From Candidatus Faecimonas gallistercoris (GTDB lineage: Bacteria; Bacillota_I; Bacilli_A; RF39; UBA660): a stretch of 56,846 nt of DNA. Of the stretch, positions 4,931-24,493 are shown piece by piece (position 1 is the stretch's first letter; the number at the start of each line of letters is the position of its first letter). Where the stretch lies: positions 1-56,846 of the forward strand of contig DVGU01000030.1 in assembly GCA_018712565.1 (NCBI GenBank), given 5' to 3'. The notes beneath the pieces were generated by a model. That model was not told the origin of the DNA and did not search any database. It worked only from the letters and a program-made list of their open reading frames with translations. The position numbers and the translations under genes are program-made.

Positions 4931-5662
4931 ATGATTAATTTTATAATTTGTGAAGATGAACCAGAATTATTAAAAGAGTACCAAAAACAAATAGATAAAT
5001 TTATGATGAAATATGATATTGATTATAAATGTTATATTTTCAATTGCTATAGTAAAGACTGGAAGAAAGCAGCAAAAAATATTAAAGGTTTTAAAATATT
5101 TTTACTAGATATAAAAACAGATGATGGATCTGGTATAGACGCAGCTAGATTAATAAGAGAAGAATATGATGACTGGGTCTCAATGATTATTATGATATCA
5201 GGATTCCCAGAATATAAATATGAAGCATTAGGTAAAAGATTAATGCTAGTAGACTTTATTAATAAATTAGATCATCCTACCAAGAAATTACAAGATTCCC
5301 TATTAATTTGTATGAAAAACTATGATAACAAATATAAAAGTTTAAAATATACATATAAAAATGTAGCATACAATATTGAGTTTAGAAATATTATCAAAAT
5401 AGAAAAAGAAATGGATAGTAAAAGATGTATTATTTATGCAGATGATACCCTATATCATATTCAAGGTTCACTAAATGATATTTTAAAAAGACTAGATAAA
5501 AGATTCTTTAAATGTAATCGAGGAGTAGCAATTAATATAGAACAAATACAAAGTTATAACTTTACTAAAAATGTAGTAGTCCTAAAAAATGGTGAAGAAT
5601 TCAAAGACATATCAAGAAGTAAAAGAAGGGAGTTGTATAATCGTGTTAGAGGTGTTGTCTGA
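4931..5662 (+). CDS. LytTR-family response regulator (AgrA-like)
   Basis: N-terminal receiver domain (FLLDIKTDDGSG) and a C-terminal LytTR-like region (FFKCNRGVAINIEQI). Adjacent to an AgrC-like kinase and to agrBD. Confidence 0.8.
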   Translation: MINFIICEDEPELLKEYQKQIDKFMMKYDIDYKCYIFNCYSKDWKKAAKNIKGFKIFLLDIKTDDGSGIDAARLIREEYDDWVSMIIMISGFPEYKYEALGKRLMLVDFINKLDHPTKKLQDSLLICMKNYDNKYKSLKYTYKNVAYNIEFRNIIKIEKEMDSKRCIIYADDTLYHIQGSLNDILKRLDKRFFKCNRGVAINIEQIQSYNFTKNVVVLKNGEEFKDISRSKRRELYNRVRGVV

Positions 5663-6932
5663 AATAATAGGATTGACAATAATGACAATAGCTGGATTTT
5701 ATATAATAAAAAAGATAATAGAAAGCAATCAAAAAATAACAAGTGCTAAAAATATATCTATAGTGGCACTTGGAGTTGTGATACCATTAATGATTTATCA
5801 AGTAGAATATAAAAGTATATACACACTAATAACCTACCTAACTAATATAATAATATATAAGCTTATTTTTAAAGAAAATATAGGAAAATCTATTATTCTT
5901 ACAAGTATAGCAATGATAATAACATTTATAGCAGATTTACTATTTTCAATTATAATAATACCTTTCTTTGATGTGAAAGATATAAGGGGGATATGGTATC
6001 TTAAAATAATTTCAAATATAGCTATTTTGATAATAAGTATTGTGCTATTAAAAATATTAGAAAAAATGAAAATTTTAAAGAAAATAAATAAAATGACTAA
6101 TACTATGGAAAATACATCTCTTATATTATTTTTAATTCTTTTAATAGTTGTAATTACAATTTTTGCTTATAATTCGTATACAATATTTAAATGGAATGAA
6201 GAGTATATTTTAAATATTATCTTAATAATAGTATTCTTACTATTATTATATATTTTTCTAAGAGAAAAAACGAATTATGAAAAATTAAGTGGAGAGTATG
6301 ACATGTTATTTTCATATGTTCAAAATTTCGAAGACTGGATAGAAAGAGAACAGTTAAATCGCCATGAATATAAAAATCAATTAGCTGTATTGCGCTGTTT
6401 AACAAAAGAAAAGAAAGTAAAAAATAAGATTGATGAAATTTTAGAGGATAATATTAATATTGAAGGACAAGCTGTAACAAATTTAAAAAGTCTTCCAAAA
6501 GGCGGAATTAAAGGGTTAATGTATTATAAAGCTGCAATTGCTCAAAAGTACAAAATAAATCTCACAACAGATGTAAGTATTGAAAGTAGTGGAATATTAA
6601 CAAAGTTATCAGAGAGGGATATTCGAGTATTGTGTAAACTAATAGGAATATATTTTGATAATGCCATTGAGGCTGCTCAAGAAAGTCGAAAGAAAAATAT
6701 ATCAATTGAAATATATGAATTAAAAGATAAAGTAAGTTTTGTATTTTCTAATACATTTAAAAAATATAAAAATATGAAAGATAGAAATAAAAAAGGTGTA
6801 TCTTCAAAAGGAGAAGGTCGAGGAAATGGACTATACTTTGCAGCAAAATTAATCAAAGAAAACCCGTGGATAACAGAAAAGCAGGAAATAATTGATAATT
6901 ATTATATACAACAAATAATCATAAAAAAATAA
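5643..6932 (+). CDS. AgrC-like sensor histidine kinase (polytopic sensor plus GHKL ATPase)
   Basis: About 6 TM helices, H-box RHEYKNQLAVL, G-box GEGRGNGLY. The start is uncertain: GTG 5643, or ATG 5682. The track start at 5589 lies inside the regulator gene. Confidence 0.75.
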   Translation: MLEVLSEIIGLTIMTIAGFYIIKKIIESNQKITSAKNISIVALGVVIPLMIYQVEYKSIYTLITYLTNIIIYKLIFKENIGKSIILTSIAMIITFIADLLFSIIIIPFFDVKDIRGIWYLKIISNIAILIISIVLLKILEKMKILKKINKMTNTMENTSLILFLILLIVVITIFAYNSYTIFKWNEEYILNIILIIVFLLLLYIFLREKTNYEKLSGEYDMLFSYVQNFEDWIEREQLNRHEYKNQLAVLRCLTKEKKVKNKIDEILEDNINIEGQAVTNLKSLPKGGIKGLMYYKAAIAQKYKINLTTDVSIESSGILTKLSERDIRVLCKLIGIYFDNAIEAAQESRKKNISIEIYELKDKVSFVFSNTFKKYKNMKDRNKKGVSSKGEGRGNGLYFAAKLIKENPWITEKQEIIDNYYIQQIIIKK

Positions 6933-6952
6933 AAGGTTTTCATAACAAAAAA

Positions 6953-7004
6953 AGAATAACTTAATATTATGCTATATAAAAATAGCTAATAAACAAGTTA
7001 TTCT
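6953..7004. terminator. bidirectional terminator between the convergent agrC-like and agrD-like genes
   Basis: Perfect 10-nt inverted repeat AGAATAACTT / AAGTTATTCT, with an inner GCTAT/ATAGC stem. Confidence 0.55.
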
Positions 7005-7027
7005 GTTCATATGTGTTATTTAATTGC

Positions 7028-7153
7028 TTAGTCTATTAAAAAATCGCTGTTACATTGAGGTTCGTCACAAACCCACCACATACACCCAAAACTTGCCGCT
7101 CCAGTTGCCATCATCGCAACTGCTCCCAAAATCATTGACAATCTTTTTTTCAT
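7028..7153 (-). CDS. agrD: AgrD-like autoinducing-peptide precursor (41 aa), not in the ORF track
   Basis: MKKRLSMILGAVAMMATGAASFGCMWWVCDEPQCNSDFLID. AAGGAGAG SD. Starts 34 nt downstream of agrB. The C-x4-x-E-P pattern is typical of clostridial/listerial AgrD. Confidence 0.7.
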   Translation of the reverse strand: MKKRLSMILGAVAMMATGAASFGCMWWVCDEPQCNSDFLID

Positions 7154-7187
7154 ATTCTCTCTCCTTTACTTAAATTTATATTAAATA

Positions 7188-7802
7188 CTATTTTGTATTT
7201 AACATCTTATAATTATTATAAGGTTCTCCAAACAATTTATAAGTAAGTGGACTAACAACAATAGTTTGTATAATCATTGCAGAAAGTATAATTGAAGTCC
7301 AATAATTACTATTTAATAAAATAATAGCTAATGTATAAATACAACCAATCAAAACAGTAACTATTTTACGAATAATTCTCTTTCTTTTATTAGGAAGAGG
7401 TCTTTTTTTAGTATCTGCAGGTGCAAACAATAAATAATGACTAACACAAATACTACTGATGATATATATAACTGAAATAGAAATATTTATATTTAATAAA
7501 AAGTAAGGTATAACAATAAAACTAAAAGTTGAAAATAACAAACACTGATAACTTTTACCAGCATGAAAACCAAAACCGGTATACCGAATAACATTAAATA
7601 ATAAAATAACTAAAACAAACTCCTTTACTATATCTAAAATTATTGCTAGAAATAATAACACAACTAATTTAGTAACAGTTAGATATATCCCTTCTAACCC
7701 ATATCTTAACTTTTTTATATCATTCTCAGAAAAAGCTTGATATTTACAAATAAAATTGATACCATAATCTAAAACCAATTGTTTCACAATATTCATCTCC
7801 AA
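7188..7802 (-). CDS. agrB: AgrB family accessory gene regulator (membrane peptidase that processes AgrD)
   Basis: Polytopic protein with RYTGFGFHAGKSYQC (conserved His/Cys pair) and APADTKKRP. The exact start is uncertain (TTG 7802, ATG 7796 or GTG 7787). Confidence 0.8.
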   Translation of the reverse strand: MEMNIVKQLVLDYGINFICKYQAFSENDIKKLRYGLEGIYLTVTKLVVLLFLAIILDIVKEFVLVILLFNVIRYTGFGFHAGKSYQCLLFSTFSFIVIPYFLLNINISISVIYIISSICVSHYLLFAPADTKKRPLPNKRKRIIRKIVTVLIGCIYTLAIILLNSNYWTSIILSAMIIQTIVVSPLTYKLFGEPYNNYKMLNTK

Positions 7803-8300: not shown

Positions 8301-8831
8301 ATGGAAATTATTATTCATGGAGATAAACTAAAAGTTACTGATTCTATGAAAGAGTACATTAAGGAAAAATTAAACAAGTTAAATAAGTATTTAGAAAATA
8401 GTGATAATGTTCGTGCTTCTGTCATAGTTAAAGTAAAAAATCATGAACAACGAGTAGAAATTACCATACCACTAAAAGCATATATTTTAAGATCAGAAGA
8501 GTCAAAAGATGACTTCTATGCAGCTGTTGATAAAACAGTTGACAAATTAGAAAGACAAATCAGAAAAAACAAAACAAGAATTATGTCTAAGCAAGGAAAG
8601 ACAAATCGTGATTTTGTTATATCTGAATTTGAAAAAGAAGATTTATCCGATGAAAGAAAGATTTTAAAAAGAAAGAAAGTTGAAGTAAAACCAATGAACG
8701 AAGAAGAGGCAATACTTCAAATGGAGCTATTAGGTCACCAATTCTATATGTATAAAGATAGAGATACAAGCGAAATGATGGTTGTGTATAAAAGAACAGA
8801 TGGTAATTATGGAATTATCGAACCTGAATAG
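8301..8831 (+). CDS. hpf: ribosome hibernation-promoting factor (long HPF/YvyD)
   Basis: 176 aa, sigma-54-modulation/S30EA fold plus a C-terminal dimerisation domain. Immediately upstream of secA, as in B. subtilis. Confidence 0.9.
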   Translation: MEIIIHGDKLKVTDSMKEYIKEKLNKLNKYLENSDNVRASVIVKVKNHEQRVEITIPLKAYILRSEESKDDFYAAVDKTVDKLERQIRKNKTRIMSKQGKTNRDFVISEFEKEDLSDERKILKRKKVEVKPMNEEEAILQMELLGHQFYMYKDRDTSEMMVVYKRTDGNYGIIEPE

Positions 8832-8848
8832 TAACTCTATTTTATGAA

Positions 8849-8884
8849 AAGGAAGAATACATCTTTCATTCTTTCTTTTTTTTT
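8849..8884 (+). terminator. intrinsic terminator after hpf
   Basis: AAGGAAGAAT / ATTCTTTCTT imperfect stem, followed by a long T-run. Confidence 0.5.
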
Positions 8885-8914
8885 GGTAAAATAATAAGTT
8901 AAGGAGATGTTAGA

Positions 8915-11413
8915 ATGAAATTATTAAGAAAATTATTTGATCATGAGTATAAAGAACTAAAAAGATTTGAAGTTCTAGCGGATAAAGTAATGGACTTAGA
9001 TGAAGAATATTCTAAGTTAACAGATACAGAATTAAAAGGAAAAACAGAAGAATTTAAAGAAAGATTACAAAATGGTGAAACTCTAGAAGATATTTTACCT
9101 GAAGCTTTCGCAACAGCAAGAGAAGCATCTTTTCGTGTATTAGGTGAAAAACATTTCTACGTCCAAATATTAGGTGGTCTTGCGATTCACTATGGTAATA
9201 TTGCAGAGATGAAAACCGGTGAAGGTAAAACGCTAACTTGTGTACTTCCAGGATACTTAAATGCTTTAACTGGAGAAGGAGTACATGTTATTACAGTTAA
9301 TGAATATCTAGCTTCTCGTGATGCAAAGTGGATGGGAGATATTTATAGATATTTAGGTTTAACAGTAGGTGTTAATGCAAGAGATTTAAGTGCTAAGGAA
9401 AAACAAGAAGCATATAACTGTGATATTTTATATTCTACCAATAATGAAATTGGATTTGATTATTTAAGAGATAATATGGTAATTCATAAAGAAGAAAGGG
9501 TACAAAGACCATTAAATTTTGCAATTATTGATGAAGTTGATTCTGTATTAATTGATGAAGCAAGAACACCATTGATTATTTCAGGTGGTCAAATGAAAAA
9601 TGCTAATTTATATATAGATGCAGATAATTTTGCAAAAAGTATAAAAGAAGAAACTGATTATGTATATGATGAAAAAACAAAAGCTGTAACACTAACTGAA
9701 ACAGGAAGTGAAAAAGCAGAAAAGAAATTTCATGTTAAAAATCTTTATGATATTGAAAATGCCTCTTTAGTACATTATATTAATCAAGCATTACGTGCAA
9801 ATTATGCCATGAAAAAAGATGTTGATTATGTAGTTCAAGATGATGAAGTAGTAATTGTAGATCAATTTACTGGACGTTTAATGAAAGGACGTGCTTATTC
9901 TGACGGACTTCATCAAGCGATTGAAGCTAAAGAAGGAGTAACTATTAACCAAGAAACAAAAACATTAGCTACTATTACTTTCCAAAATTTATTTAGGATG
10001 TATAAGAAATTATCTGGTATGACTGGTACTGCTAAAACAGAAGAAGAAGAGTTTAGAAATATTTATAATATGTATGTTATAGAAATTCCAACTAACAAAG
10101 AAGTAATTCGTATCGATGCACCAGATTTAGTATATGCCACCAAAGAAGCGAAATACAAAGCAATTATTAATTTTGTAAAAGAAAGATACGAAAAAGGACA
10201 ACCAGTTTTAATTGGTACAATTGCAATTGAAACAAGTGAATTAATAAGTGATTTACTAAAAAAAGCACATATTCCACACGAAGTATTAAATGCAAAAAAT
10301 CATGCTCGTGAAGCAGAAATAATCTCTAAAATAGGTCAAAAAAGATCAGTAACCATTGCTACTAACATGGCTGGTCGTGGTACCGATATAAAATTGTCAG
10401 ATGAAATTAGAAATTTAGGTGGATTATGTGTTGTTGGTACGGAACGCCATGAGTCACGTCGTATTGATAATCAGCTACGTGGTCGTTCTGGTCGTCAAGG
10501 AGATCCTGGATATACACAATTCTTCGTGTCAATGAAAGATGATTTAATGGTACGTTTTGGATCAGATAGAATCGGTGAAATGATGAAATCCATGGGATTA
10601 GGAGATCAAGCAATTCAAAGTAAGACTTTTACTCGTTCAATTGGAACTGCTCAAAAGCGTGTAGAAGGAAATAATTTTGATATACGTAAACAATTATTAC
10701 AATATGATGATGTAATGAATGATCAAAGAGAAATTATGTATGCAAAAAGAAATAGAATTTTAGATAGTGAATCAATTCATGAAATGGTTTTAGATACATT
10801 CCGTCATCATATAGAAGATTTAGTAAAATCACATTTAGCACCAGAAGGAGTATTAGAAAAAAAAGACTATGAAGAAATAACAGAATATGTAAATGAAAAT
10901 TTATTAAAAAATGATATAAAACTATCTGAAATTAATAAAAAATCAGAAGAAGAAACAATAGATATATTAGTAAAGAAAATTACAACAGAATATGAAAGTA
11001 AAATAAAAGATATTCCAGAAGAAGTAACAGATGAATTTGAAAAAGCTATAACATTACAAGTAGTTGACAATTATTGGATGGAACATATCAATACCATGTC
11101 ACATTTAAGAGAAGGAATCCATTTAAGAGGATATGCTCAAGAAGATCCACTTCGTGCATATACAATGGAAGGGTATGATATGTTTGATGATATGTTACAA
11201 AAAATTGATAAAGATGTAACAACGTTCCTATTAAGAGCAGAAATCAAACAAAATATTGAAAGAAAAGAAGTTTCAAAAAAGAAAATAACTAATGATGGAG
11301 GAAAAGAACCAGCAAAAAAAACACCAAAGAGAGTAAAGAAAATTGGTAGAAATGAACCATGTCCATGTGGTAGTGGTAAGAAATATAAACAATGCTGTGG
11401 AAAAAACGCATAA
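8915..11413 (+). CDS. secA: preprotein translocase ATPase SecA
   Basis: 832 aa. MKTGEGKT Walker A, DEVDSVLIDEARTPLIIS, C-terminal Zn motif CPCGSGKKYKQCCG. Confidence 0.98.
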   Translation: MKLLRKLFDHEYKELKRFEVLADKVMDLDEEYSKLTDTELKGKTEEFKERLQNGETLEDILPEAFATAREASFRVLGEKHFYVQILGGLAIHYGNIAEMKTGEGKTLTCVLPGYLNALTGEGVHVITVNEYLASRDAKWMGDIYRYLGLTVGVNARDLSAKEKQEAYNCDILYSTNNEIGFDYLRDNMVIHKEERVQRPLNFAIIDEVDSVLIDEARTPLIISGGQMKNANLYIDADNFAKSIKEETDYVYDEKTKAVTLTETGSEKAEKKFHVKNLYDIENASLVHYINQALRANYAMKKDVDYVVQDDEVVIVDQFTGRLMKGRAYSDGLHQAIEAKEGVTINQETKTLATITFQNLFRMYKKLSGMTGTAKTEEEEFRNIYNMYVIEIPTNKEVIRIDAPDLVYATKEAKYKAIINFVKERYEKGQPVLIGTIAIETSELISDLLKKAHIPHEVLNAKNHAREAEIISKIGQKRSVTIATNMAGRGTDIKLSDEIRNLGGLCVVGTERHESRRIDNQLRGRSGRQGDPGYTQFFVSMKDDLMVRFGSDRIGEMMKSMGLGDQAIQSKTFTRSIGTAQKRVEGNNFDIRKQLLQYDDVMNDQREIMYAKRNRILDSESIHEMVLDTFRHHIEDLVKSHLAPEGVLEKKDYEEITEYVNENLLKNDIKLSEINKKSEEETIDILVKKITTEYESKIKDIPEEVTDEFEKAITLQVVDNYWMEHINTMSHLREGIHLRGYAQEDPLRAYTMEGYDMFDDMLQKIDKDVTTFLLRAEIKQNIERKEVSKKKITNDGGKEPAKKTPKRVKKIGRNEPCPCGSGKKYKQCCGKNA

Positions 11414-11475
11414 AATAAGGGTTTTCGAGGGTTTTAAAAATTAAAAAATTACAAAAAATAGTCAATTTGTTTCCA

Positions 11476-11556
11476 TTTTGTTTCCAAAATTAGGAAAGAT
11501 GTTACCAAAATATCGGAAAAGCCTTATAAAATAAGGAAACAATTTTGGAAACAAAA
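11476..11556. repeat. perfect 16-nt inverted repeat TTTTGTTTCCAAAATT / AATTTTGGAAACAAAA with a 49-nt spacer, plus extra GTTTCC/GGAAAC copies
   Basis: Read directly. Arms at 11476-11491 and 11541-11556. Additional TTTGTTTCC at 11466-11474 and AAGGAAAC at 11533-11540. Confidence 0.8.
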
Positions 11557-11726
11557 AGTTAGCGTTCGTTTGCTAGCTTTTTTGTTAAATATAACTTCAT
11601 TTACATAAAGTAAGGAGTTGTGTAATAAGGAAAGTAAATGCGATAAAAAATGTAAGCTACTAAACTGACGATTATCAATACATACTTTAATTTAATTTTG
11701 TGATAGAATTATCTTGAGGTGATACG

Positions 11727-12128
11727 ATGAAAAAAATGAATGTAATAGTAATTTTTAACAAAGATATGACACATACATTAATGTGTAAACGTACAAAAGA
11801 TCCTTATATGGGAATGTATAATCTCGTTGGTGGGAAAATTGAAAAAGAAAATGATGGGTTAAACGAAGCTTATCGTGAACTCTACGAAGAAACCAATATA
11901 AAAAAAGCCGATGTTGAGTTAGTTTACTTCATGAACTTATCATATGTAAAATGGGGAAAAGAATTAGAAGTGTATTATGGCGTATTAAATAAAAATGTTA
12001 CACTTGTAGAAGAAGTGAATAAACTGGAATGGGTTCCAATTAATGATGATTTCTTTGATATGAACAAATATGCTGGTGAAGGAAATATTGGTCATATAAT
12101 TGAAGAGATAAAAATAGATATGAAATAA
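11727..12128 (+). CDS. NUDIX hydrolase
   Basis: Nudix box GGKIEKENDGLNEAYRELYEETN. 133 aa. GAGGTGA SD. Confidence 0.8.
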   Translation: MKKMNVIVIFNKDMTHTLMCKRTKDPYMGMYNLVGGKIEKENDGLNEAYRELYEETNIKKADVELVYFMNLSYVKWGKELEVYYGVLNKNVTLVEEVNKLEWVPINDDFFDMNKYAGEGNIGHIIEEIKIDMK

Positions 12129-12143
12129 AAGTTGAATAAATAA

Positions 12144-12178
12144 AAAATAGCTTTTTGTAACAGACAAAAGCTATTTTT
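12144..12178. terminator. bidirectional intrinsic terminator after the NUDIX gene
   Basis: AAAATAGCTTTT..AAAAGCTATTTT stem flanked by an A-run and a T-run. Confidence 0.65.
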
Positions 12179-12292
12179 ATATGTTCTATAATACCGCTTT
12201 GAACTAACAAACTGCTAAAGTTAAATCACCAATATGTATATTTTGACATACATTTTCTGCCTTATATTTTCATAGTTGCAGTTACCGATTTC

Positions 12293-12386
12293 TTGCAATT
12301 AATAATACAATAATGTATAATGAGACTGTAAATAGAGTTGTTGGATAAATTGTGAGCGAATGCACACAATGTTTCCTTTTTATTTT
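12293..12386 (+). ncRNA. candidate short transcript: strong promoter plus intrinsic terminator with no ORF
   Basis: TTGCAA (12293-12298), 17-nt spacer, TATAAT (12316-12321). Hairpin ATTGTG-GC/GC-CACAAT (12349-12370) followed by a T-rich tract. No coding potential. Flanked by a 14-nt perfect inverted repeat. Confidence 0.25.
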
Positions 12387-12522
12387 CAAAATATAAGGCA
12401 GACATAGTACCGATAGTACTATAAATACCACAAATATTTTTATTACCAGTGCCACAAAGCCTTGAAATACCAGTAATTACGTAAATAACATAAATACTAT
12501 AAATACTTGGATTTCTTGAACA

Positions 12523-12570
12523 TGCGGTTCGGGAAAGAAATATAAGAATTGTTGTGGAAAGAACGCATAA
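12523..12570 (+). repeat. orphan copy 2 of the secA 3' end (candidate att core)
   Basis: TGCGGTTCGGGAAAGAAATATAAGAATTGTTGTGGAAAGAACGCATAA encodes CGSGKKYKNCCGKNA*, versus CGSGKKYKQCCGKNA* in secA. An in-frame TGA lies two codons upstream. Similarity continues past the stop. Confidence 0.8.
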
Positions 12571-12724
12571 ATAAAGGGAAAAATTAATATTAATAAAATT
12601 AAAAATTGGTTCGGATTTTTATGAAATGTCCACCAAATATTAAAAATATGTAGTAAAATAAGGGTGTGAACAAGTATCTAATTTGTTGACACCCTTTAAT
12701 TTAATAGAATGGAGGTAATAATTA

Positions 12725-13609
12725 TTGAAAAAAGATTTAGTAACAACAGAAATAGTCGTTAAAGAAAATAAAGTGGGAATATTAAGAGTAGGAAATGTTA
12801 ATTATATTTCACTAACAGACTTAGCAAGGTATCAAAATTCAAGTGCTCCATCTTTTACAGTAAAGAACTGGTTAAGAAGAATTAATACTATAGATTATAT
12901 TGGTTTGTGGGAAGAAATCCATAACCAAGATTTTAATTTGGTCGAATTCGACCAAATTAAAACTGAGTATGGTAGAAACTCATTTGCCATGTCACCAACA
13001 CAATGGATAAAAAGAACTAACGCCATAGGTATTATTTCAAAAGGTGGAAGACATAGTATAGGAACTTATGCTCATCCAGATATTGCTTTTGAATTTGCAA
13101 GCTGGCTATCTCCAGAGTTTAAATTATATTTAATAACTGAATTTGAAAGATTAAAAGCAAATGAAGCATATCAAGAAAAGATGGATTGGCAAGCTAACAG
13201 AATATTAGCAAAGTTAAATTATGTAGTTCATACAGATGACGTTAAGGTTTATATAGTTCCACCACTTACAGAAGCACAAAAGAAATTTGTTTATGCTGAA
13301 GAAGCTGATGTTTTAAATGTGGCACTATTTGGTATGACAGCAAAAGAATGGAGAGAAAGCAATCCAGAACTTGCTAAAAATGGAAATATTAGGGACTATA
13401 CAGATTTACTTCATCTAGTAATATTAAATAACTTGGAAAATACAAATGCTGAATTAATAGAAGCCAAAGTTCCGCAAAATGAAAGATTAGTTAGACTTAA
13501 TAATTCTGCAAGAAGGCAAATGAAAGTGTTAAAAGATAATAAAAACATTAAGGGTTTAGAATTATTGCAAAAACAAATTAATGAAGATAATAATTTAATA
13601 GCTAATTAA
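12725..13609 (+). CDS. KilA-N domain-containing DNA-binding protein
   Basis: TTG start 9 nt after a GGAGG SD. The N-terminal ISLTDLARY...YAHPDIAFEFASWLSPEFKLYL pattern is typical of KilA-N. Confidence 0.6.
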   Translation: MKKDLVTTEIVVKENKVGILRVGNVNYISLTDLARYQNSSAPSFTVKNWLRRINTIDYIGLWEEIHNQDFNLVEFDQIKTEYGRNSFAMSPTQWIKRTNAIGIISKGGRHSIGTYAHPDIAFEFASWLSPEFKLYLITEFERLKANEAYQEKMDWQANRILAKLNYVVHTDDVKVYIVPPLTEAQKKFVYAEEADVLNVALFGMTAKEWRESNPELAKNGNIRDYTDLLHLVILNNLENTNAELIEAKVPQNERLVRLNNSARRQMKVLKDNKNIKGLELLQKQINEDNNLIAN

Positions 13610-13612
13610 TGA

Positions 13613-13648
13613 AAAGTATTGACAATCACATTCGTCAATACTTTTTTC
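13613..13648 (+). terminator. intrinsic terminator after the KilA-N gene
   Basis: AAAGTATTGAC / GTCAATACTTT perfect stem, followed by a T-run. Confidence 0.7.
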
Positions 13649-13682
13649 TGTAAAATAAAATAGATTAAAGGAGAGTGATAAA

Positions 13683-14497
13683 ATGATTAGTATAAGAAAA
13701 AGAGGAAGGGTTTATCAGTATTGTTTTGAGGCAGGAAAAGTAAATGGAAAAAGAAAGTAAATAACTAAATTTGGGTTTAAAATAAAAAATGAAGTCTTTG
13801 CTGCAGGGCAAAAAGCATATAATGAATTTATTAATGGTGAGAATACCACAGAATGTAATATGTTATATTCTGATTATCTAGATTACTGGATGAAAGAATA
13901 TTTTGAAATAAATTATAAGTATTCAACAGCCAAAAGATATAAAGAATCGTTTGATAAAACAAAGAAAGATGGTATTTGGGTACAACAAAAACAACAGGTA
14001 GTTGCAGAGAAGTTTATATTTGTGATACCTTGCATTCAATGTTATATGATTATAAAAACTTACAAAATAAATATAGGAAAGAATATGGAAAAAAGTATAA
14101 ACGATATATTATAGAAGAAGTGAGAAATAAGTATGGTAAGTTAGTAGAATATAAGATAATTCAAAGTAATATTAAAAGAAATTATATTAAAATGGTATTT
14201 ACTAGGAAAGATGGAACATATTCAGGAACAGATATTATAAAATATCCATTTAAAATTATTCATCACGAATTAGGAGTTAATTGTAGATTTTATGATTTAA
14301 GAGGAAGTTTTGCCACTATTAGTTTAAGAAACGGATGTGAAATAAAAGATATTGCTGAAGTGTTAGGACATAAAAGCGTTGAAACTACTGAAAAAAATTA
14401 TATTTCGAGTTCAAACGAAACACTGAAAAGTACAATTAAAAACTTTGAGAATAATATCCAATCTGACGTCATTAATAATATTATTAAATACAAATAA
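13683..14497 (+). pseudogene. tyrosine site-specific integrase, decayed (premature stop, frameshift, internal deletion)
   Basis: MISIRKRGRVYQY... Arm-binding N-terminus. In-frame TAA at 13758. Frame change near 13976. The C-terminus keeps YDLRGSFAT...LGHKSVETTEKNYI, but the region that would carry the first catalytic Arg is missing. Confidence 0.75.
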
Positions 14498-14549
14498 GTA
14501 GTTGACTAGTACTACCGATAACGGTACAATATATAGTGAGGTGATAACT

Positions 14550-15476
14550 ATGAAGTTTATGACTACAAAAGAAGCTGCAGAGAAATGGGAGATTAGCGAG
14601 AGAAGAATTAGACAATTATTAGAAGAAGGGCGAATCGAAGGAGCTATAAAGAATGGCAATAGTTGGAATATTCCTGATTATGCTATAAAACCAGTAGATA
14701 AAAGAAGTGTTAAACCAGATAATAAAGTGTTTATAATTGACTTACCAGTGAATTTTTTTGATAAAGTAGATAATATGAAGAAAGAATTAGATAGTAAAAG
14801 ACCATTTCCAAAACAGACGTTAAGGACATTAAAAGAGTCCATTAATTTAGAGTGGACTTATAATAGTAATGGAATAGAAGGTAATACATTAACATTGAGG
14901 GAGACACAAGTGGTTTTAGAAGGAATTACTGTTGGTGGTAAAACATTAAAAGAACACTTAGAAGCAATTAATCATGAAAAAGCAATTCTTTATTTAGATG
15001 ATTTAGTGAAAGAAAAAAATCCTATTACTGAATGGAATATAAAGAATATTCACAGATTAATTTTAAAAGATATTGATGATAAAAATGCTGGAAGATATAG
15101 GACAGAAAATGTAGTGATTAAAGGCGCAGTTCATGTTCCACCAGATTATTTAAAAGTACCAGAGTTGATGGAAAAATTAATTGTAAATTATCACTCATGG
15201 AGTTCATATCATCCAATTATAAGAGCAGCATTACTTCATGGGGAATTAGTTAAAATTCATCCTTTTGTTGATGGGAATGGTAGAACATCAAGATTACTCA
15301 TGAATTTAGATTTAATGAATCATGGGTTTAATCCAGTAATAATAAAAAAAGAAGATAGATTAAAATATTACGAAGCTCTAGATAAAGCACACACAACAGG
15401 TAATTATACAGATTTTATTAAATTAATAACTAAATTGGAAGTAGAAATATTAAAGAAATATTTAGAATTATTATAG
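14550..15476 (+). CDS. Fic-domain protein (AMPylase family) with an N-terminal HTH
   Basis: Canonical HPFVDGNGRTSRLLMN motif. N-terminal MTTKEAAEKWEISERRIRQL HTH. SNGIEGN matches the [ST]xxxE[GN] inhibitory helix. ATG 14550 follows a GAGGTGA SD. Confidence 0.85.
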   Translation: MKFMTTKEAAEKWEISERRIRQLLEEGRIEGAIKNGNSWNIPDYAIKPVDKRSVKPDNKVFIIDLPVNFFDKVDNMKKELDSKRPFPKQTLRTLKESINLEWTYNSNGIEGNTLTLRETQVVLEGITVGGKTLKEHLEAINHEKAILYLDDLVKEKNPITEWNIKNIHRLILKDIDDKNAGRYRTENVVIKGAVHVPPDYLKVPELMEKLIVNYHSWSSYHPIIRAALLHGELVKIHPFVDGNGRTSRLLMNLDLMNHGFNPVIIKKEDRLKYYEALDKAHTTGNYTDFIKLITKLEVEILKKYLELL

Positions 15477-15486
15477 GAGAAGTTTT

Positions 15487-15735
15487 ATGAAACAAGAATC
15501 GTTATTATTAGATATGCATTTACACTCTGAATATTCAAAAATTAATAAACCTAGAAAATCTAAAAAATTAAAATCTATGACAACAAAAGAATATGTAGAA
15601 ATTCTTTTAGATAAAAAAGTAAAAGTATTTAGTATAACGGACCATAATTACTTTTCTAAAAGTTATTATGATGAAATAGAAAAATATAATTTTGAAAAAG
15701 AAATAAATTTTGAAAAATTATTACGTGTTTATTAA
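15487..15735 (+). pseudogene. truncated PHP-domain gene remnant (N-terminal 82 codons only)
   Basis: DMHLHSEYS and SITDHNY PHP-type metal motifs. The ORF ends after 82 aa. Such N-termini normally lead into much larger proteins. Confidence 0.5.
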
Positions 15736-15873
15736 ATTTAGCCTTGTCTGTTAAAGTAAATATAGAAGATACTATTGAAGAAAAGACTGAAGCAGAAGAT
15801 AACCTAGTAAAACTAATTATTAGTATAAAAGATAATTATGGAGGAGGTTATGTAAAAGATAAATTAATTGGAA

Positions 15874-16402
15874 ATGAAAAAAATTTTATTCTATAATGAT
15901 GAAGAAGGAAATATTAAAGTAGAAGTATTACTTGAAATGAAGATGTTTGGTTAAATACGGAAACATTATCAACCCTTTTTAATATTGATAGAAGTGGTAT
16001 TGTTAGACATATTAATAATATTTATAAAGACGATGAATTAAGTGAAAATAGCACATGTGCAAAAATTGCACATGTAGGTAATGATGGGAAACAAACCTAT
16101 AATACAAAATATTATAATCTTGATATGATTATCTCTATTGGTTTTAGAGTTAATTCTAAAAAGCCATTAAATTTAGAGTTTGGGCAAATAAAACAATTAA
16201 AGATTATATGGTTCAAGGTTTTGCTTTAAATGATGAAAAATTCGTGAAGGAGAGAAGGTCTGATCAAGAATATTTCAAAAGATTACTTGAAAGAATAAAA
16301 TTAATTCATACAATTGAAAGAATGTTTTATCAAAAAATAATTGATATATTGTTAAAATATAGTATGATTATATCAGTGAACGAATGTGGAAATTGTCTAT
16401 AA
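15874..16402 (+). pseudogene. RhuM-family protein gene, frameshifted and truncated
   Basis: MKKILFYNDEEGNIKVEVLLE..DVWLNTETLSTLFNIDRSGIVRHINNIYKDDEL...YYNLDMIISIGFRVNSKK... is spread over at least 3 frames. Confidence 0.65.
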
Positions 16403-16527
16403 TCTGTTCAAAAGTAGTAATCTTTATAACATTATCAATGCAATAAATATAAAAAGCAAGTTGACCTTATATTTCAAAATGAACACGTAAAATTATAAAT
16501 ACCCATAATCATTTAATCTGAATAATT

Positions 16528-16569
16528 TGTGGTTCAGATAAAAAATATAAACAATGTTGTGAAAAGTAA
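16528..16569 (+). repeat. orphan copy 3 of the secA 3' end (most diverged; candidate displaced original end)
   Basis: TGTGGTTCAGATAAAAAATATAAACAATGTTGTGAAAAGTAA encodes CGSDKKYKQCCEK*. An in-frame TGA lies three codons upstream. Confidence 0.7.
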
Positions 16570-16575
16570 ATGAAG

Positions 16576-16609
16576 GATGTAGATAAAATTTAATGTCTGC
16601 ATCTTTTTT
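16576..16609 (+). terminator. intrinsic terminator directly after the vestigial secA end
   Basis: GATGTAGA / TCTGCATC 8-bp stem (one G-U pair), followed by TTTTTT. Confidence 0.6.
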
Positions 16610-16648
16610 CTATAATTGATGTTATAATGAAAATAGGAGTTGATATAT

Positions 16649-17725
16649 ATGAGTAAGCCTAAAAAATTAAATAAAGGTGACAAAGTAGCAATTGTAAGCC
16701 TATCTAGTGGAATTCTTGGTATGCCATACTGTGAACATGAATTAAAAATTGCTTTGAAAAGATTAGAAGAAATGGAACTTGTTCCAGTTATTATGCCAAA
16801 TGCATTAAAAGGTGTAGATTATATAAAAAATCATCCAGAGGCAAGAGCTGCCGATTTAAAACAGGCCTTTATGGATAATAGTATAAAAGGAATAATATGT
16901 GCTATTGGAGGCGATGATACTTATAGAACCATTCCTTATTTAATGGAAGATAAAGAGTTTGTTAAAGCAGTAAAGAATAATCCTAAAATATTTACCGGAT
17001 TTTCAGATACAACAAATAATCATCTTATGTTAAACAAATTAGGATTATCTACATTTTATGGTCCCTGCGTAATAGTTGATTTAGCAGAACTAGATAAGGA
17101 TATGCTTCCATATACAAAAGAACAATTTTATAAATTCTTCTCAAATGATTCAGATTATGAAATTACATCAAGTCCCATTTGGTATAAAGAAAGAAAAAGT
17201 TTTGGAGTAGAAGAAATAGGAACACCACGAGAAGTACAACAAGAACAACATGGATATGAAACATTGAATGGACGTGGTATCGTGTCAGGAAAATTATATG
17301 GTGGTTGTATTGAAAGTATTTATGATGCTTTTACAGGTAATAGATATGGGGATGAACCACAGATTTTTGAAAAATATAAAATATTCCCAACTGATGAGGA
17401 ATGGAAAGAAAAAATATTATTTTTAGAAACTTCAGAAGAAAAACCAACACCAGAAGAATTAGAAAAGATGTTATTAGAACTAAAAAATAGACAAATATTA
17501 AGTCTAGTCAAAGGAATTATTATTGGAAAGCCACAGGATGAACAATACTATGAAGAGTACAAAGAAATATATAGAAAAGTATTTAAAGATTTAAATACAC
17601 CTGTATTATATAATATTAATTTTGGTCACTCAGTTCCAAGGTGTATAATTCCTTATGATGTAGAAGCTACTATAGACTATGATAATAAACGTATATTCAT
17701 TAACAGTCAAATTTTAGAAAATTAA
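16649..17725 (+). CDS. S66 family LD-carboxypeptidase (MccF-like)
   Basis: KGDKVAIVSLSSG, GFSDTT (nucleophile Ser) and NFGHSVP (His) motifs. ATG 16649 follows an AGGAG SD. Confidence 0.75.
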   Translation: MSKPKKLNKGDKVAIVSLSSGILGMPYCEHELKIALKRLEEMELVPVIMPNALKGVDYIKNHPEARAADLKQAFMDNSIKGIICAIGGDDTYRTIPYLMEDKEFVKAVKNNPKIFTGFSDTTNNHLMLNKLGLSTFYGPCVIVDLAELDKDMLPYTKEQFYKFFSNDSDYEITSSPIWYKERKSFGVEEIGTPREVQQEQHGYETLNGRGIVSGKLYGGCIESIYDAFTGNRYGDEPQIFEKYKIFPTDEEWKEKILFLETSEEKPTPEELEKMLLELKNRQILSLVKGIIIGKPQDEQYYEEYKEIYRKVFKDLNTPVLYNINFGHSVPRCIIPYDVEATIDYDNKRIFINSQILEN

Positions 17726-17742
17726 AAAATAAATAATTACAT

Positions 17743-17775
17743 AAAGTATTGACAATCATTGTTAATACTTTTTTG
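17743..17775 (+). terminator. intrinsic terminator, related in sequence to the one at 13613
   Basis: AAAGTATTGACAATCA...TTAATACTTTTTT. Confidence 0.6.
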
Positions 17776-17940
17776 ATAGTTAAAAAATGTAACAGGAACA
17801 AATTATAATAAAAAAATTAAATTCAATTAACAAATACTAATCATATGTAAATAACATGAAATAAACGAATCAAAACACCTATAATTCTAAATAATTTTAT
17901 ATCTTAAAATGATATAATAAGAATAAATAATTAAAAGATA

Positions 17941-17971
17941 TTGACTCTCCCCTTAAGGGAAGTGATATATT
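17941..17971 (+). promoter_or_regulatory. MerR-type promoter (19-bp spacer with a central palindrome)
   Basis: TTGACT (17941-17946), 19-nt spacer containing the perfect palindrome CCCTTAAGGG (17950-17959), then TATATT (17966-17971). Confidence 0.6.
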
Positions 17972-17990
17972 GATAACGAAAGGAGAAATT

Positions 17991-19136
17991 ATGTATAAAA
18001 TAGGAGAATTCTCATATCTTTGTGAATGTACAATGAAAACATTAAGACACTATGATAAGATTGGTATTTTAATACCTAAAAAAACAGATGAATTTAATGG
18101 TTACAGATACTATAGTGAAGAACAATTAAATACCTATCATAATATAAAAATGCTACAAGATGCAGGATTCAGTTTAAAAGAAATCAAAAATATTCTCGAT
18201 AATCCTAAAGATAAAAATATATTAGAAGAAGTAAAAAAGTTAACGCAAGATTATCAAGAAAAACTAAAAAAACTTGAAAAGATTAAAAATAAACTAAGGG
18301 GGAATATTTCTATGGAATTAATTAAAAATCCTAAATTTGTTATGCTTGGTGAATATAAAGAATTAAAAACAAGAAATGATTTCAAAAAAGAATTAGAAAT
18401 AATTGATAAGAAAGTAAATAACAAAATGTTTTCTATATTACCTAGTGTTTTAATTTGTTTTGAAGTGGGATTCAAAGAAAATAATATTACATGCTTTATT
18501 GGTAGAGTATTAAATGATGATTTAAAGATTAATTATAATTTTATTAAAATGATGAAAACTATTGGGTTAGAAACAATAACTTACAACAAACCAGATTCTA
18601 TGTTATATACAAACAGTAATAATACTAAAGAATCTTATAAAGAAATGATTAAATATGCTAATAAGAATAAGATTCAAATAGCAGGAGAATTTATAGAAAT
18701 ATATGATGGTTCTAAAACTGATATATATATAGAAGCTTATGATTTGACCAAGGATAATGAAGACGCTAAACTACATATGAAAGAACTAAAAGAAAAGTTT
18801 AAATCTACTGATCCTATATATGATTCTAAATATATTGGTAAATGGATATTACAAGGACAAATAGTAGAACCTCTAAAAATATTTAATCCCAGGAAAGAGC
18901 ATTTTATGCCTGATACGAAGTTTAAAGAATTAATATTAAATTTCGATGGAACTACAAACTATGATAACGTTACTTGGAGAGATGGATATTTACTAATAGA
19001 AAAAAATAATATAATAATTGATAACTCTCTATACCAGGAATCCTCTAAAGACGGTACTCGGTACCTAGGAATTTTAATGAATAATGAAAATATAAATGCA
19101 AGACCATATCTATATTATTATAAAGAAGAAAAATAA
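17991..19136 (+). CDS. MerR-family transcriptional regulator with a GyrI-like effector domain and a C-terminal extension
   Basis: MYKIGEFSYLCECTMKTLRHYDKIGIL MerR HTH. ATG 17991 follows an AAAGGAG SD. Confidence 0.75.
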   Translation: MYKIGEFSYLCECTMKTLRHYDKIGILIPKKTDEFNGYRYYSEEQLNTYHNIKMLQDAGFSLKEIKNILDNPKDKNILEEVKKLTQDYQEKLKKLEKIKNKLRGNISMELIKNPKFVMLGEYKELKTRNDFKKELEIIDKKVNNKMFSILPSVLICFEVGFKENNITCFIGRVLNDDLKINYNFIKMMKTIGLETITYNKPDSMLYTNSNNTKESYKEMIKYANKNKIQIAGEFIEIYDGSKTDIYIEAYDLTKDNEDAKLHMKELKEKFKSTDPIYDSKYIGKWILQGQIVEPLKIFNPRKEHFMPDTKFKELILNFDGTTNYDNVTWRDGYLLIEKNNIIIDNSLYQESSKDGTRYLGILMNNENINARPYLYYYKEEK

Positions 19137-19259
19137 TATAAACATGATAATCTTTTTCTAATATCTGAAAAAACTAAACTATTTTTCATCAGCGGTAGTA
19201 TTAACTAAACTTTTAATAATTATATCAACCATTTTACACTATCCGATTGCCATGCTAGT

Positions 19260-19288
19260 TTGACATAGTTGCCTGTTAATGTTAAAAT
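19260..19288 (+). promoter_or_regulatory. consensus-like sigma-A promoter for the acyltransferase gene
   Basis: TTGACA, 17-nt spacer, TAAAAT. Confidence 0.5.
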
Positions 19289-19315
19289 AATCCAAAAAAG
19301 TGTTGAGGGAAAATT

Positions 19316-20347
19316 ATGACAAAGAGAGAAAACGTAGTATCTTTTATTAAAGATATAAAAAATGATACAAGCCATACATTAGATTATTTATTAAATGATG
19401 AAGTAGAAAAGACTTTATCAAAAAAAGGAATAAAAGTAAGAAAGGTTTTAGCACCAATATTAAGACTCGGCTATGGATTGACAACAGATTATAAGTTGAA
19501 AGTAGACTCTAGAGAAAAATTAACGCATTCAAAAAAAGGAAAAATATTTTTAGTAAATCATAGGCAAGGAGATGATATGGTTTTAAGTGCAAAAGCTATT
19601 GCCAAAAGTGGATATTTTGTATTTGGTAATAAAACTCTTGCTTTAGAATCATTATCTAATGGATATGGCTTATGGGGATATGGAATGATTTTATTAGATA
19701 GAAATAATGATAAAAGCAGAAAAGCCTGTTATGAAAAAATGAAATATGTACTTGAACATGGTGGAAATATTATTGTATTTTCAGAAGGATATTGGAATTT
19801 AGATGATAATGGCCAAAAAGATGAAAGAAATGCAGCGGATGATCATAATTCAGAAAACTGGTTAATTCAGGATATTAATATAGGAGCAATTCGTTTAGCA
19901 AAAGAAATAGGAAGTGAAATAGTACCTACAGTTCTTCATTACGATGAAATAGGAAAGAAAAAGTGTTATGCAAAACGAGGAAAACCAATAAAAGTTGAAA
20001 AAAATGATGATATATTCGTAAAAAAATATCAAATACTAGAAACAATGACGACTATGTATTGGGATTTAATGTCAAAATATTCTTCATATTGCAGAAAAGA
20101 GCTAGAAGAAGATGGCGTTACTTTAAAGGAACAATGGGAAATTTTAAAGAAACAATTAGTAGCTTTTTGTGATATTGATAAAGTAAATTACAAATTAGAC
20201 TTACAAAATGAAAAACTAATAGGAAAAGCTAAAGTAGTAAATGGAGTAACAACAAATGAAGAGGCCTTTTCTCATTTAAATAATTTGATTCCAAATAAGT
20301 CCAATGCCTTTCTACTGTCTAAGCAAAGAACTGGCATAAGAAAATAA
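19316..20347 (+). CDS. PlsC-like lysophospholipid/glycerolipid acyltransferase family protein
   Basis: NHRQGDD (HX4D) and FSEGYW (xEG) acyltransferase motifs. Confidence 0.55.
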   Translation: MTKRENVVSFIKDIKNDTSHTLDYLLNDEVEKTLSKKGIKVRKVLAPILRLGYGLTTDYKLKVDSREKLTHSKKGKIFLVNHRQGDDMVLSAKAIAKSGYFVFGNKTLALESLSNGYGLWGYGMILLDRNNDKSRKACYEKMKYVLEHGGNIIVFSEGYWNLDDNGQKDERNAADDHNSENWLIQDINIGAIRLAKEIGSEIVPTVLHYDEIGKKKCYAKRGKPIKVEKNDDIFVKKYQILETMTTMYWDLMSKYSSYCRKELEEDGVTLKEQWEILKKQLVAFCDIDKVNYKLDLQNEKLIGKAKVVNGVTTNEEAFSHLNNLIPNKSNAFLLSKQRTGIRK

Positions 20348-20413
20348 AAGATATTTAAAAGTTCCATCAAGGGAACTTTTTTTGTTATACTATATTATAT
20401 AGTAGGTGATAAT

Positions 20414-22396: not shown

Positions 22397-22461
22397 TATT
22401 ATGATATAATTGTATAAAAGATTATAAACATTAACCTAGTATTGGAAAGGAAAAGTAGTAG

Positions 22462-23058
22462 ATGAGAAATAAAGAAGTAATAGCTGATATTAGAAAACTA
22501 ACAAGACAAGAACAAAGAGAAATGCCTTATGAAGATTTTGTAAAAATGTTAGAAAACTTATCACCAGAGGAAATAATGGAAGTAAGTAAAGTCTATGGTT
22601 ATCCAGTGTTTATAAGAAAGTGCATGGGAACATTACAACATAAAATTCCAATTTTACAAGATGGAGCAGCAGCAATTATTGAAAATGATAAAGGAGAAAT
22701 ACTATTACAAAGCAGAAAAGATAATGATAAATGGGGATTACCCGGAGGCTGTCAAGAAGCAGGAGAAAGGTTTCAAGAAGTAGTAATTAGAGAAATAAAA
22801 GAAGAAACGAATCTAGATGTAAGAGAAGAAAATTTAGAATTATTAGATATTGTCTCAGGCCTTTCTAGAAAAAATGAGTACTCTAATGGAGATGTTGTAA
22901 TAAATAATACCGCATTATATTTGATTAGAAAGTATTCGGGAGATTTAATCTGGGATGAAGAATCAAAAGATATGAAGTTTTTTTCATTAGATAACCTACC
23001 AAAAAATCAAAACGATCCAGATTTAATAAAAGTATATATAAATAAAAAAAGAAAATAA
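22462..23058 (+). CDS. NUDIX hydrolase
   Basis: GLPGGCQEAGERFQEVVIREIKEETN Nudix box. Confidence 0.8.
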   Translation: MRNKEVIADIRKLTRQEQREMPYEDFVKMLENLSPEEIMEVSKVYGYPVFIRKCMGTLQHKIPILQDGAAAIIENDKGEILLQSRKDNDKWGLPGGCQEAGERFQEVVIREIKEETNLDVREENLELLDIVSGLSRKNEYSNGDVVINNTALYLIRKYSGDLIWDEESKDMKFFSLDNLPKNQNDPDLIKVYINKKRK

Positions 23059-23156
23059 TATAAATGTAAAGTTACACTAAAAAGTGTAATTTTTTAATTC
23101 TAAAACGATTTAATTTATACTTAAGTGATATACTAAAAAAGAAAGGTAGGGAAAAA

Positions 23157-24212: not shown

Positions 24213-24216
24213 AACA

Positions 24217-24246
24217 AAAAACTATTGAAAAAAATCAATAGTTTTT
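24217..24246 (+). terminator. intrinsic terminator
   Basis: AAAAACTATTGA / TCAATAGTTTTT stem. Confidence 0.65.
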
Positions 24247-24493
24247 AAAATTTAAATAAAGATAATTATAAATTATAAAAAACAAGGAGCCTAACTCGGC
24301 TCCTTTATCTATTTACAGAGGATCTTCACACTTAATAGTGAACCTTCCTCACTAATAATATATGTAAAATGTAAATAATATATACAAAATTATTAAAAAA
24401 GTTTGAGAAATTATAAAAAATATGTTACCTTATCATTGATTTAAGAAAAGAATAGAAACTGAAATTTAGAACAAACTAAAAAGGAGAAGAGAA

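Follow-up and report, generated by a model that had tools for sequence, protein, structure and literature searches.

For ICEs (integrative and conjugative elements) and IMEs (integrative and mobilizable elements) of streptococci, a three-step model describes integration, decay to a cis-mobilizable element (CIME) and integration of a newcomer at an attachment (att) site (PMC5704250). As summarised in that paper, ICESt1, ICESt3 and CIMEs accrete at the fda 3′ end of Streptococcus thermophilus (Pavlovic 2004, Bellanger 2011). A survey of streptococcal IMEs reports 11 target genes, including ebfC, guaA, rpsI, rplL, rpmE, rpmG and tatD, and secA is absent from its text (Coluzzi 2017, PMC5357655). 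Islands of the SGI1/MGI type integrate site-specifically at the 3′ end of trmE and form tandem arrays of related islands (PMC2297512). Here we describe a comparable arrangement at secA in a 56,846-nt stretch of DNA (the window) from Candidatus Faecimonas gallistercoris (contig DVGU01000030.1, assembly GCA_018712565.1), where secA is followed by two further copies of its own 3′ end that bound segment A (1.1 kb, between the first and second copy) and segment B (4.0 kb, between the second and third).

A first-pass annotation of the sequence had attributed this arrangement to site-specific integration into the secA 3′ end, with displaced gene ends left behind. The integrases, presence/absence polymorphism, intact relatives and movement of a related element reported below support that attribution. 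It is very probable that the region is a fossil accretion array, in which two site-specific integrative elements entered within the last 15 codons of secA by means of arm-binding tyrosine integrases. The mechanism is textbook and the conceptual surprise modest. What is new is the target gene: in the open-access literature we found no relevant report of secA as an attachment site, and large island catalogues may still include it.

The secA 3′ end and its copies

The window has a G+C content of 27.9%. Upstream of its cold-shock, HPF and secA genes, and close to them, is an agr-like quorum-sensing cluster (4931-7802) with a LytTR response regulator, an HATPase_c_5 kinase, a 41-aa peptide ORF and AgrB. 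The SecA protein of the window shares 95% identity with its counterpart in ‘uncultured Bacilli bacterium BRZ_NH bin11’ and 79% with the one in Candidatus Onthousia faecipullorum. The SEC-C zinc-binding tail is intact, and the secA open reading frame (ORF) ends in CPCGSGKKYKQCCGKNA and a stop. As the first-pass annotation had claimed, this end is present in three copies on the same strand (Table 1). Copy 1 (11366-11413), the true end of the ORF, encodes CGSGKKYKQCCGKNA, copy 2 (12523-12570) encodes CGSGKKYKNCCGKNA and copy 3 (16528-16569) encodes CGSDKKYKQCCEK, each followed by a stop. Translation also agreed with the TGA codons reported there, one in frame two codons upstream of copy 2 and one three codons upstream of copy 3. 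Copy 3 no longer has two of the invariant SEC-C glycines (one G is now D, the other E), a loss to be expected in an end that was displaced and freed from selection.

In a repeat search of the window, the three copies are the top family (58 nt, with 79% and 62% identity to copy 1). A degenerate 38-nt pattern, derived from the window copies themselves, has exactly three sites in the 56.8 kb, which are the copies, compared with 0 in 100 shuffles. A profile built mostly from copies of other genomes scores copies 1, 2 and 3 at E = 2e-11, 5e-9 and 9e-8, respectively, and has no significant match elsewhere in the window or on its minus strand. The three copies of the secA end are far beyond chance.

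The left edge of all orphan copies is sharp, at (C)CA/TGTGG (the slash marks the edge), with stop codons just upstream. On the right, the similarity proposed to continue past the stop of copy 2 is present but short, consisting of an ATAAA(T)AAGGG box found 3′ of both copy 1 and copy 2. Terminators were judged by folding energy and z score, and a consensus terminator scan was also run. Folding bore out the good terminator proposed after copy 3; the consensus scan, which sets too narrow limits on loop and GC, missed this hairpin. A hairpin at 11550-11586 (-14.5 kcal/mol, z = -3.3) now terminates secA. An Rfam search of 11200-16800 gave only chance-level matches.

Table 1 Features of the secA region in window coordinates. 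Roles of att copies, arms and flanks follow the proposed reading; numbers with the prefix L denote loci and contigs of other genomes.
Feature	Position	Strand	Evidence
secA, target gene	8915..11413	+	832-aa ORF; Pfam SecA_DEAD through SEC-C on identical protein
att copy 1, attL of segment A, working secA end	11364..11413	+	Repeats, profile, pattern
Left (P′) arm of segment A	11414..11606	+	83-88% identical in L004, L007, L009
NUDIX hydrolase, sole cargo of segment A	11727..12128	+	PF00293, E = 1.7e-9
Right (P) arm of segment A	12302..12520	+	Aligns with cassette right ends in L004, L009, L026, L029, L032, L081
att copy 2, attR of segment A; core and right flank, former attL of segment B	12521..12570	+	Repeats, profile, pattern
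KilA-N domain protein, segment B cargo	12725..13609	+	PF04383, E = 1.2e-17
Tyrosine integrase, N-terminal fragment (arm-binding domain)	13683..13969	+	Translation; alignment to intact L004 integrase
Tyrosine integrase, C-terminal fragment	13956..14497	+	PF00589, E = 1.8e-9
HTH-Fic protein, segment B cargo	14550..15476	+	PF02661, E = 1.7e-23
82-aa ORF, possible remnant of a PHP-domain N-terminus	15487..15735	+	PF02811, E = 0.022, below cut-off, weak
RhuM pseudogene	15874..16402	+	PF13310 on one fragment; three-frame translation
Right (P) arm remnant of segment B	16460..16525	+	Groups with right-end family; TATAAATAC at 16494
att copy 3, displaced original secA end, decaying	16526..16569	+	Repeats, profile, pattern; analogy with L065
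Original secA terminator	16572..16609	+	14-bp stem, -16.1 kcal/mol, z = -5.3, then U run
LD-carboxypeptidase (S66) gene, first gene after copy 3, presumed right host flank	16649..17725	+	PF02016, PF17676

Integrases, empty sites and element movement in relatives

We compared the window with 80 secA loci from uncultured gut Bacilli (one genome per species, SecA protein identity 75-95%). Integrase homologues next to secA, which the first-pass annotation had suggested seeking, are indeed present: at 14 of the 80 loci an intact gene follows secA on its strand, 200-250 bp beyond the stop. In a metagenome-assembled genome (MAG) labelled ‘Clostridia’, the gene for a more distantly related SecA of 914 aa is likewise followed directly by that for a 67%-identical integrase, with prfB downstream. 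Orphan secA ends occur only downstream of secA and on its strand. They were found at 19 loci; among the 49 loci whose sequence extends 1.5 kb or more past secA, 18 have them. The maximum is four copies each, in L011 and L074. The profile scan of about 1.3 Mb detected no significant orphan copy elsewhere.

Empty and occupied versions of the site can be compared directly among relatives. L065 carries a 1546-nt insertion, flanked by a 42-nt direct repeat, that is absent from L069 and L053. It aligns with both of these genomes through secA to position 12490, and the alignment resumes at 14036 (12449 in L069). The flank directly after secA in L069 and L053 is 97% identical to L065 over the first 400 nt and 89-90% identical over about 1.17 kb. 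The insertion encodes a TetR-like gene and a SAM methyltransferase gene, with no integrase or integrase remnant. Its far-side copy keeps the core and flank that directly follow secA in the empty genomes; thus, the rightmost copy is the displaced native end.

A second comparison involves L004 (95% SecA identity to the window), in which the order is secA, an element that we call E1, an orphan copy, a second element (E2), and a second orphan copy with its own terminator. E1 (4.5 kb) encodes a Ser/Thr kinase, a 416-aa integrase and a PDC-M59A/B pair. Bounded by secA-end copies, it is, together with contig L100, an intact element of the kind that had been sought. E2 (1.9 kb) encodes an MqsR-like toxin and a Panacea antitoxin. 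The sequence after the first orphan copy of L004 matches what directly follows secA in the window, L007 and L009, which are therefore empty for E1. Since E1 sits between secA and a cassette with ends like those of segment A, the newest element is the one nearest secA.

E1 also occurs in L098, where it is 99.87% identical to the L004 element over 4594 nt and encodes an identical integrase protein. There it follows the right arm of a different xis-int element and precedes RhuM and a diaminopimelate (DAP)-dehydrogenase-like gene, whereas in L004 it stands right after secA. From CA/TGTGGTTCGGG onward, the left junction reads the same in L004 and L098. The two also have the same P arm at the right junction, where the core differs (GGC versus GGA, and an ending in AACGCATAA versus AATAAATAA). 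The left core and its flank thus travel with E1 and the right core belongs to the target, which places strand exchange within CATGTGG (CA/TGTGG), in the Pro-Cys-Gly codons. In copy 1 of the window this heptamer, the probable crossover, is at 11364-11370, and the next 15 codons, the stop and the flank would be element-supplied. Supply of these 15 codons, stop and flank by the element explains the variation of the SecA tail among relatives, which reads GK, GKNA or GKNK before the stop, or has K changed to R.

secA and prfB are syntenic across the clade, with an interval of between about 1.8 kb and the 13.4 kb found in the window. Compared with L051, L078 and L013, the whole interval (window positions 11414-24845) is variable. 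Its genes between copy 3 and prfB (S66 peptidase, MerR, acyltransferase, hybrid kinase, a second NUDIX and a DAP-dehydrogenase-like gene) are only patchily shared with relatives, the S66 gene having a 72% identical homologue in L040, and no att copies were found among them. Of 73 contigs, 20 break off within 600 nt 3′ of secA, a count given here without a background rate. These ends fit a repeated or polymorphic junction and are only a hint, as contig starts are also common just upstream of secA. The contigs of L005, L013, L032, L033, L049, L064 and L078 start within 300 nt upstream of the gene, so assembly breaks are common on the 5′ side too.

In L080, a second, open copy of the secA 3′ half (aa 412-830) lies at 18374-19634, 7.4 kb downstream of the resident secA (8471-10957). 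With 72% nucleotide identity to the resident gene, it terminates in an att core of its own. Half of the gene appears to have been replaced by homologous exchange, which would be another way for this locus to gain islands.

The two segments and a proposed order of events

The integrases have a PF14657 arm-binding domain along with PF14659 and PF00589, and they belong to phrog_1. The intact proteins of L004 and L100 measure 413 aa (gene call) to 416 aa (longest ORF). Within the phage collection searched, the nearest phage integrases, from C. difficile phages, are at most 34% identical. Integron-integrase models score far below their cut-offs (TIGR02249, 45-75 bits versus 265; NF011946, 24-41 bits versus 435), and membership of the integrons was rejected on this basis.

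The best relative of segment B is contig L100, with 96.5% identity over window positions 12583-13969, covering the KilA-N gene and then an intact 413-aa integrase gene; L004 is 88-93% identical to segment B. In the window the integrase is broken twice. Its N-terminal fragment, with nucleotide identities of 87.9% to L004 and 96.5% to L100, has Gln26 changed to a stop at 13758-13760, and relative to both L004 and L100 an internal deletion of 419 nt, all of them retained in L100, has removed residues ~96-244, the box I arginine among them. With a dead integrase, segment B counts in functional terms as a CIME. At its left end, 12515-12733 matches the secA end and flank of L016, L024, L046 and L077; copy 2 together with 12571-12733 is thus the former attL of segment B, and the copy 2 core resembles the core of E1. 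At its right end, 16354-16569 aligns with the right end and orphan copy of L022.

Pfam bore out most of the gene content first assigned to the two segments, namely the NUDIX and KilA-N genes, the C-terminal part of the tyrosine integrase, HTH-Fic (a helix-turn-helix, HTH, domain joined to Fic) and the RhuM fragment; for the PHP remnant the support is weak. The RhuM pseudogene is frameshifted, and its C-terminal half is gone. It has about 88% nucleotide identity to intact genes of 339-341 aa in L020, L022 and L024, over 15859-16350 only. Two further features of segment B were noted. At 12929-12964, inside the KilA-N gene, there is a 34-nt near-perfect palindrome with a AATTTGGTCGAATTCGACCAAATT core, of which an identical 29-nt copy lies in L024 (15302-15330) at a non-homologous position, just past the integrase-homologous region. 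The N-terminal HTH of the Fic protein (14550-14680), directly 3′ of the integrase, resembles excisionase-type HTH domains at scores just below cut-off (PF12728, 24 versus 27 bits; TIGR01764, 23 versus 28.8).

Segment A has no integrase and belongs to a family of cassettes with conserved ends. Copy 1 and 11414-11606 form the left end of a family also seen in L004 (E2), L007 and L009; the flank 11364-11588 recurs 3′ of an orphan copy in L004 and directly 3′ of secA in the other two. The left arm holds four TTGTTTCC motifs, two direct and two inverted, at 11467-11554, so that four of the seven sites in the window fall within 88 nt. The right arm has ATAAATAC repeats at 12421, 12490 and 12499, which are presumed to be integrase arm-binding sites. 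It falls in a family of 14 right ends common to cassettes and integrase-bearing elements, and the same architecture adjoins the xis-int genes of L084-L089. Segment A, E2 of L004 and the L009 cassette have both ends in common, at 83-91% identity, around unrelated cargo: the NUDIX gene, the MqsR/Panacea toxin-antitoxin pair and a HAD hydrolase gene, respectively. The NUDIX gene has its own terminator within about 12143-12178. With attL, attR and both arms, and without integration or transfer genes, segment A matches part of the CIME definition.

The right arm of segment A also contains, on the minus strand at 12282-12455, a small hydrophobic ORF that is conserved in cassettes of this type (57-71 aa, VIKI..FIVLSVLCL..KHCVHS; minus strand of L004, 18629-18844). 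It has no Pfam match, and opposite it lie a promoter-like site (12293-12321) and a hairpin. It could be a type I toxin-antitoxin pair, or just arm DNA that is conserved.

Several cargo genes match defence families in PADLOC and are candidate anti-phage genes by this similarity. The KilA-N protein matches PDC-S22 over nearly its full length (E = 8.7e-115) and also phrog_2657, HTH-Fic matches SoFic (E = 1.3e-35) as well as PDC-S04, and the NUDIX protein matches the candidate defence family PDC-S07 (E = 9e-10). In L004, the kinase matches PD-T4-6 and mad6, and the gene pair matches PDC-M59A/B.

Elements of this family differ in what they carry. No relaxase, replication, packaging or conjugation genes were found in the window segments, E1, L100 or L101, and E1, L100 and L101 are only 3.7-4.5 kb in size. 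An IME is mobilised by a relaxase or oriT of its own, and segments A and B, E1 and L100 lack such a relaxase. A MobV relaxase accompanies a related integrase only in L038, where it is paired with xis-int (Mob_Pre, E = 4e-27), and in L048, where a near-identical N-terminal sequence in the relaxase ORF indicates the same arrangement. Thus, the family spans IME-like elements and minimal ones that consist of an integrase and cargo. Replication-initiator-like genes are found only in the larger relatives L038 and L057. In L038 (12696-19837) and L048 (12715-17519), two integrases lie 3′ of secA with no att copy detected between them, in the order int1, Schlafen/AlbA_2 ATPase (L038 only), a 218-aa ORF, a replication-like HTH gene, xis, int2 and MobV relaxase; int2 of L038 is fragmented. 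The right end of a widespread element in L084-L089 (e.g., L084, 7765-9607) bears xis (HTH_17) and the gene for an integrase of 423 aa, a protein identical in 247 contigs. The element ends in a ATAAATAC-rich arm and a secA-type core, beyond which the context differs among contigs. No left att, second copy or secA link was found within 8 kb upstream of the integrase.

From these data, we propose the following scheme. The chromosomal site would be the Pro-Cys-Gly codons of the SEC-C zinc finger, with strand exchange within CATGTGG. Each element would carry, after the heptamer, the remaining codons (GSGKKYKxCCGK...), a stop and a terminator, so that secA stays intact, and the prior gene end would come to lie beyond the element, where it is left as an orphan. 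In a first step, segment B, resembling L100 and E1 and bearing KilA-N, the integrase and further cargo, would have integrated and displaced the native end, now copy 3 with its own terminator. In a second step, segment A, an integrase-less, CIME-like NUDIX cassette, would have integrated at the secA-proximal junction and created copy 2; an integrase acting in trans may have brought it, or it may have lost one of its own. Last, the segment B integrase would have died through the nonsense codon and the 419-nt deletion, leaving the array fixed.

Competing explanations and comparison with known systems

In the species of the window the array does not vary. Four exact-protein look-ups (SecA, S66 peptidase, KilA-N and NUDIX), with 22-23 contigs read in each, returned the same array and gene order in all contigs; hence the array is fixed, and in this species it is a fossil that is now immobile. 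The expectation of empty and occupied sites held among relatives (L065 versus L069 and L053; E1 in L004 versus the window, L007 and L009) and failed in the window's own species.

This lack of polymorphism counts against an origin by integration, as do several other observations. No empty site was found for the species. In the JGI metagenome collection, a search for a secA anchor, a 35-65-nt gap and the native flank gave 0 matches; since the native flank alone also gave 0, the species is absent from that collection and the empty-site scan is uninformative. No excised circle or attP junction was seen: the element-sized contigs L100 and L101 show no circular form and no terminal overlap, with L100 breaking at att cores. 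The large integrase-first elements of L038 and L057 have no orphan copy within 8.7-10 kb downstream. No integrase-less cassette was near-identical in two contexts. Finally, all comparative data come from MAGs or metagenome contigs, in which assembly artefacts could account for some arrangements.

Of the other explanations, the one that survives best overlaps with an accretion array rather than excluding it. The secA end could be a working dock for gene cassettes, analogous to an integron, into and out of which integrase-less cassettes of one to three genes with full P and P′ arms are moved by integrases acting in trans; such cassettes would then not simply be products of decay. Among 25 att-bounded segments, 21 lack an integrase; these are 0.7-3.2 kb long and hold one to three genes co-oriented with secA. 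Among their products are GNAT acetyltransferases, an SDR oxidoreductase, an NTPase, HSP20, a DNA-alkylation repair enzyme, a HAD hydrolase, a radical-SAM protein, type I restriction-modification M and S subunits and toxin-antitoxin pairs. The right-end family shared with integrase-bearing elements, the conserved ends around unrelated cargo in segment A, E2 and L009, and the clean L065 insertion all fit such a dock. If real, it would be a means by which gut Bacilli with small genomes reassort their defence, toxin-antitoxin and accessory genes. However, as no integrase-less cassette recurs in two contexts, a dock lacks direct support. Nor are the integrases of the IntI type; segment A has terminators of its own, and the co-orientation fits the strand bias of the genome (43 of the 52 window ORFs of at least 100 aa are on the plus strand). 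The attC site of integrons is an imperfect palindrome recombined as a hairpin, whereas the repeats here are direct copies of coding sequence. We consider a working dock unlikely.

Still less probable is that segment B is the remnant of a prophage or phage satellite moved by phage packaging rather than an element linked to conjugation. Phages often carry KilA-N, RhuM and Fic families (phrog_2657, phrog_11900), the integrase is in phrog_1 and related integrase-first elements carry replication-initiator-like genes, but capsid, terminase, primase and packaging genes are absent from segment B, E1, L100 and L101, even the closest integrases of phages are distant, and L038 and L048 pair the integrase with a MobV relaxase. 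Largely refuted is an origin without any integrase, from unrelated SEC-C genes or from duplication by slippage or unequal recombination, for which one could cite the many proteins with SEC-C motifs, an L086 gene call that reads through an orphan copy with a weak SEC-C score, and the L080 duplication with its suggestion of homologous exchange at the locus, but against which stand the confinement of orphans to the region 3′ of secA on its strand, the abrupt left edge with stop codons beside it, segments between copies that are mutually unrelated and hence not duplications, integrases adjoining secA in 14 genomes, and the movement of E1 together with its left core.

Read as an accretion array, the locus adds the zinc-finger tail of secA to the conserved gene ends used as docking sites by integrative elements, and secA targeting defines a distinct integrase clade; phage integrases reach no more than 34% identity. 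It explains the hypervariable secA-prfB interval in a poorly known, uncultured gut lineage with genomes of ~1.5 Mb, and may help to explain the contigs that end shortly after secA. The att core (CATGTGG plus SEC-C codons) is short and highly conserved, and could be used as a marker to delimit islands and harvest cargo from metagenomes. Much of this cargo matches candidate anti-phage systems (PDC-S22, PDC-M59, PD-T4-6-like kinases and SoFic). The integrase and its att pair could also serve as a site-specific integration tool for low-GC Bacillota.

The resemblance to integrons lies in the short co-oriented cassettes of one to three genes, the repeated recombination site, the adjoining tyrosine recombinase gene and cargo rich in GNAT, NUDIX, toxin-antitoxin and accessory genes. 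In contrast to integrons, the integrase has an arm-binding domain and belongs to the phage/ICE type, and the repeat is a coding gene end with asymmetric arms of ~200 nt on each side. Islands of the SGI1/MGI type likewise target a conserved-gene 3′ end and stand in tandem with related islands (PMC2297512); they differ in occurring in Proteobacteria, in having another integrase family, and in being large resistance islands that need an IncA/C helper plasmid. Streptococcal IMEs (PMC5357655) are similar in being small integrase-bearing elements in conserved-gene 3′ ends with toxin-antitoxin or defence-type cargo, and some relatives here (L038 and L048) pair an integrase with a MobV relaxase as well, whereas segment B and E1 have none. 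The comparison with ICE/CIME accretion made at the outset by the first-pass annotation is apt, and the three-step model fits the window (PMC5704250). Compared with the fda system, the target here is secA, the host is an uncultured low-GC gut Bacilli member, the elements are much smaller, at 0.7-4.5 kb, with arrays of up to four copies, and no conjugation module was seen. What the two loci share is a tyrosine integrase acting at the 3′ end of a housekeeping gene, restoration of that gene end, and decayed elements with attL and attR in tandem with newer arrivals.

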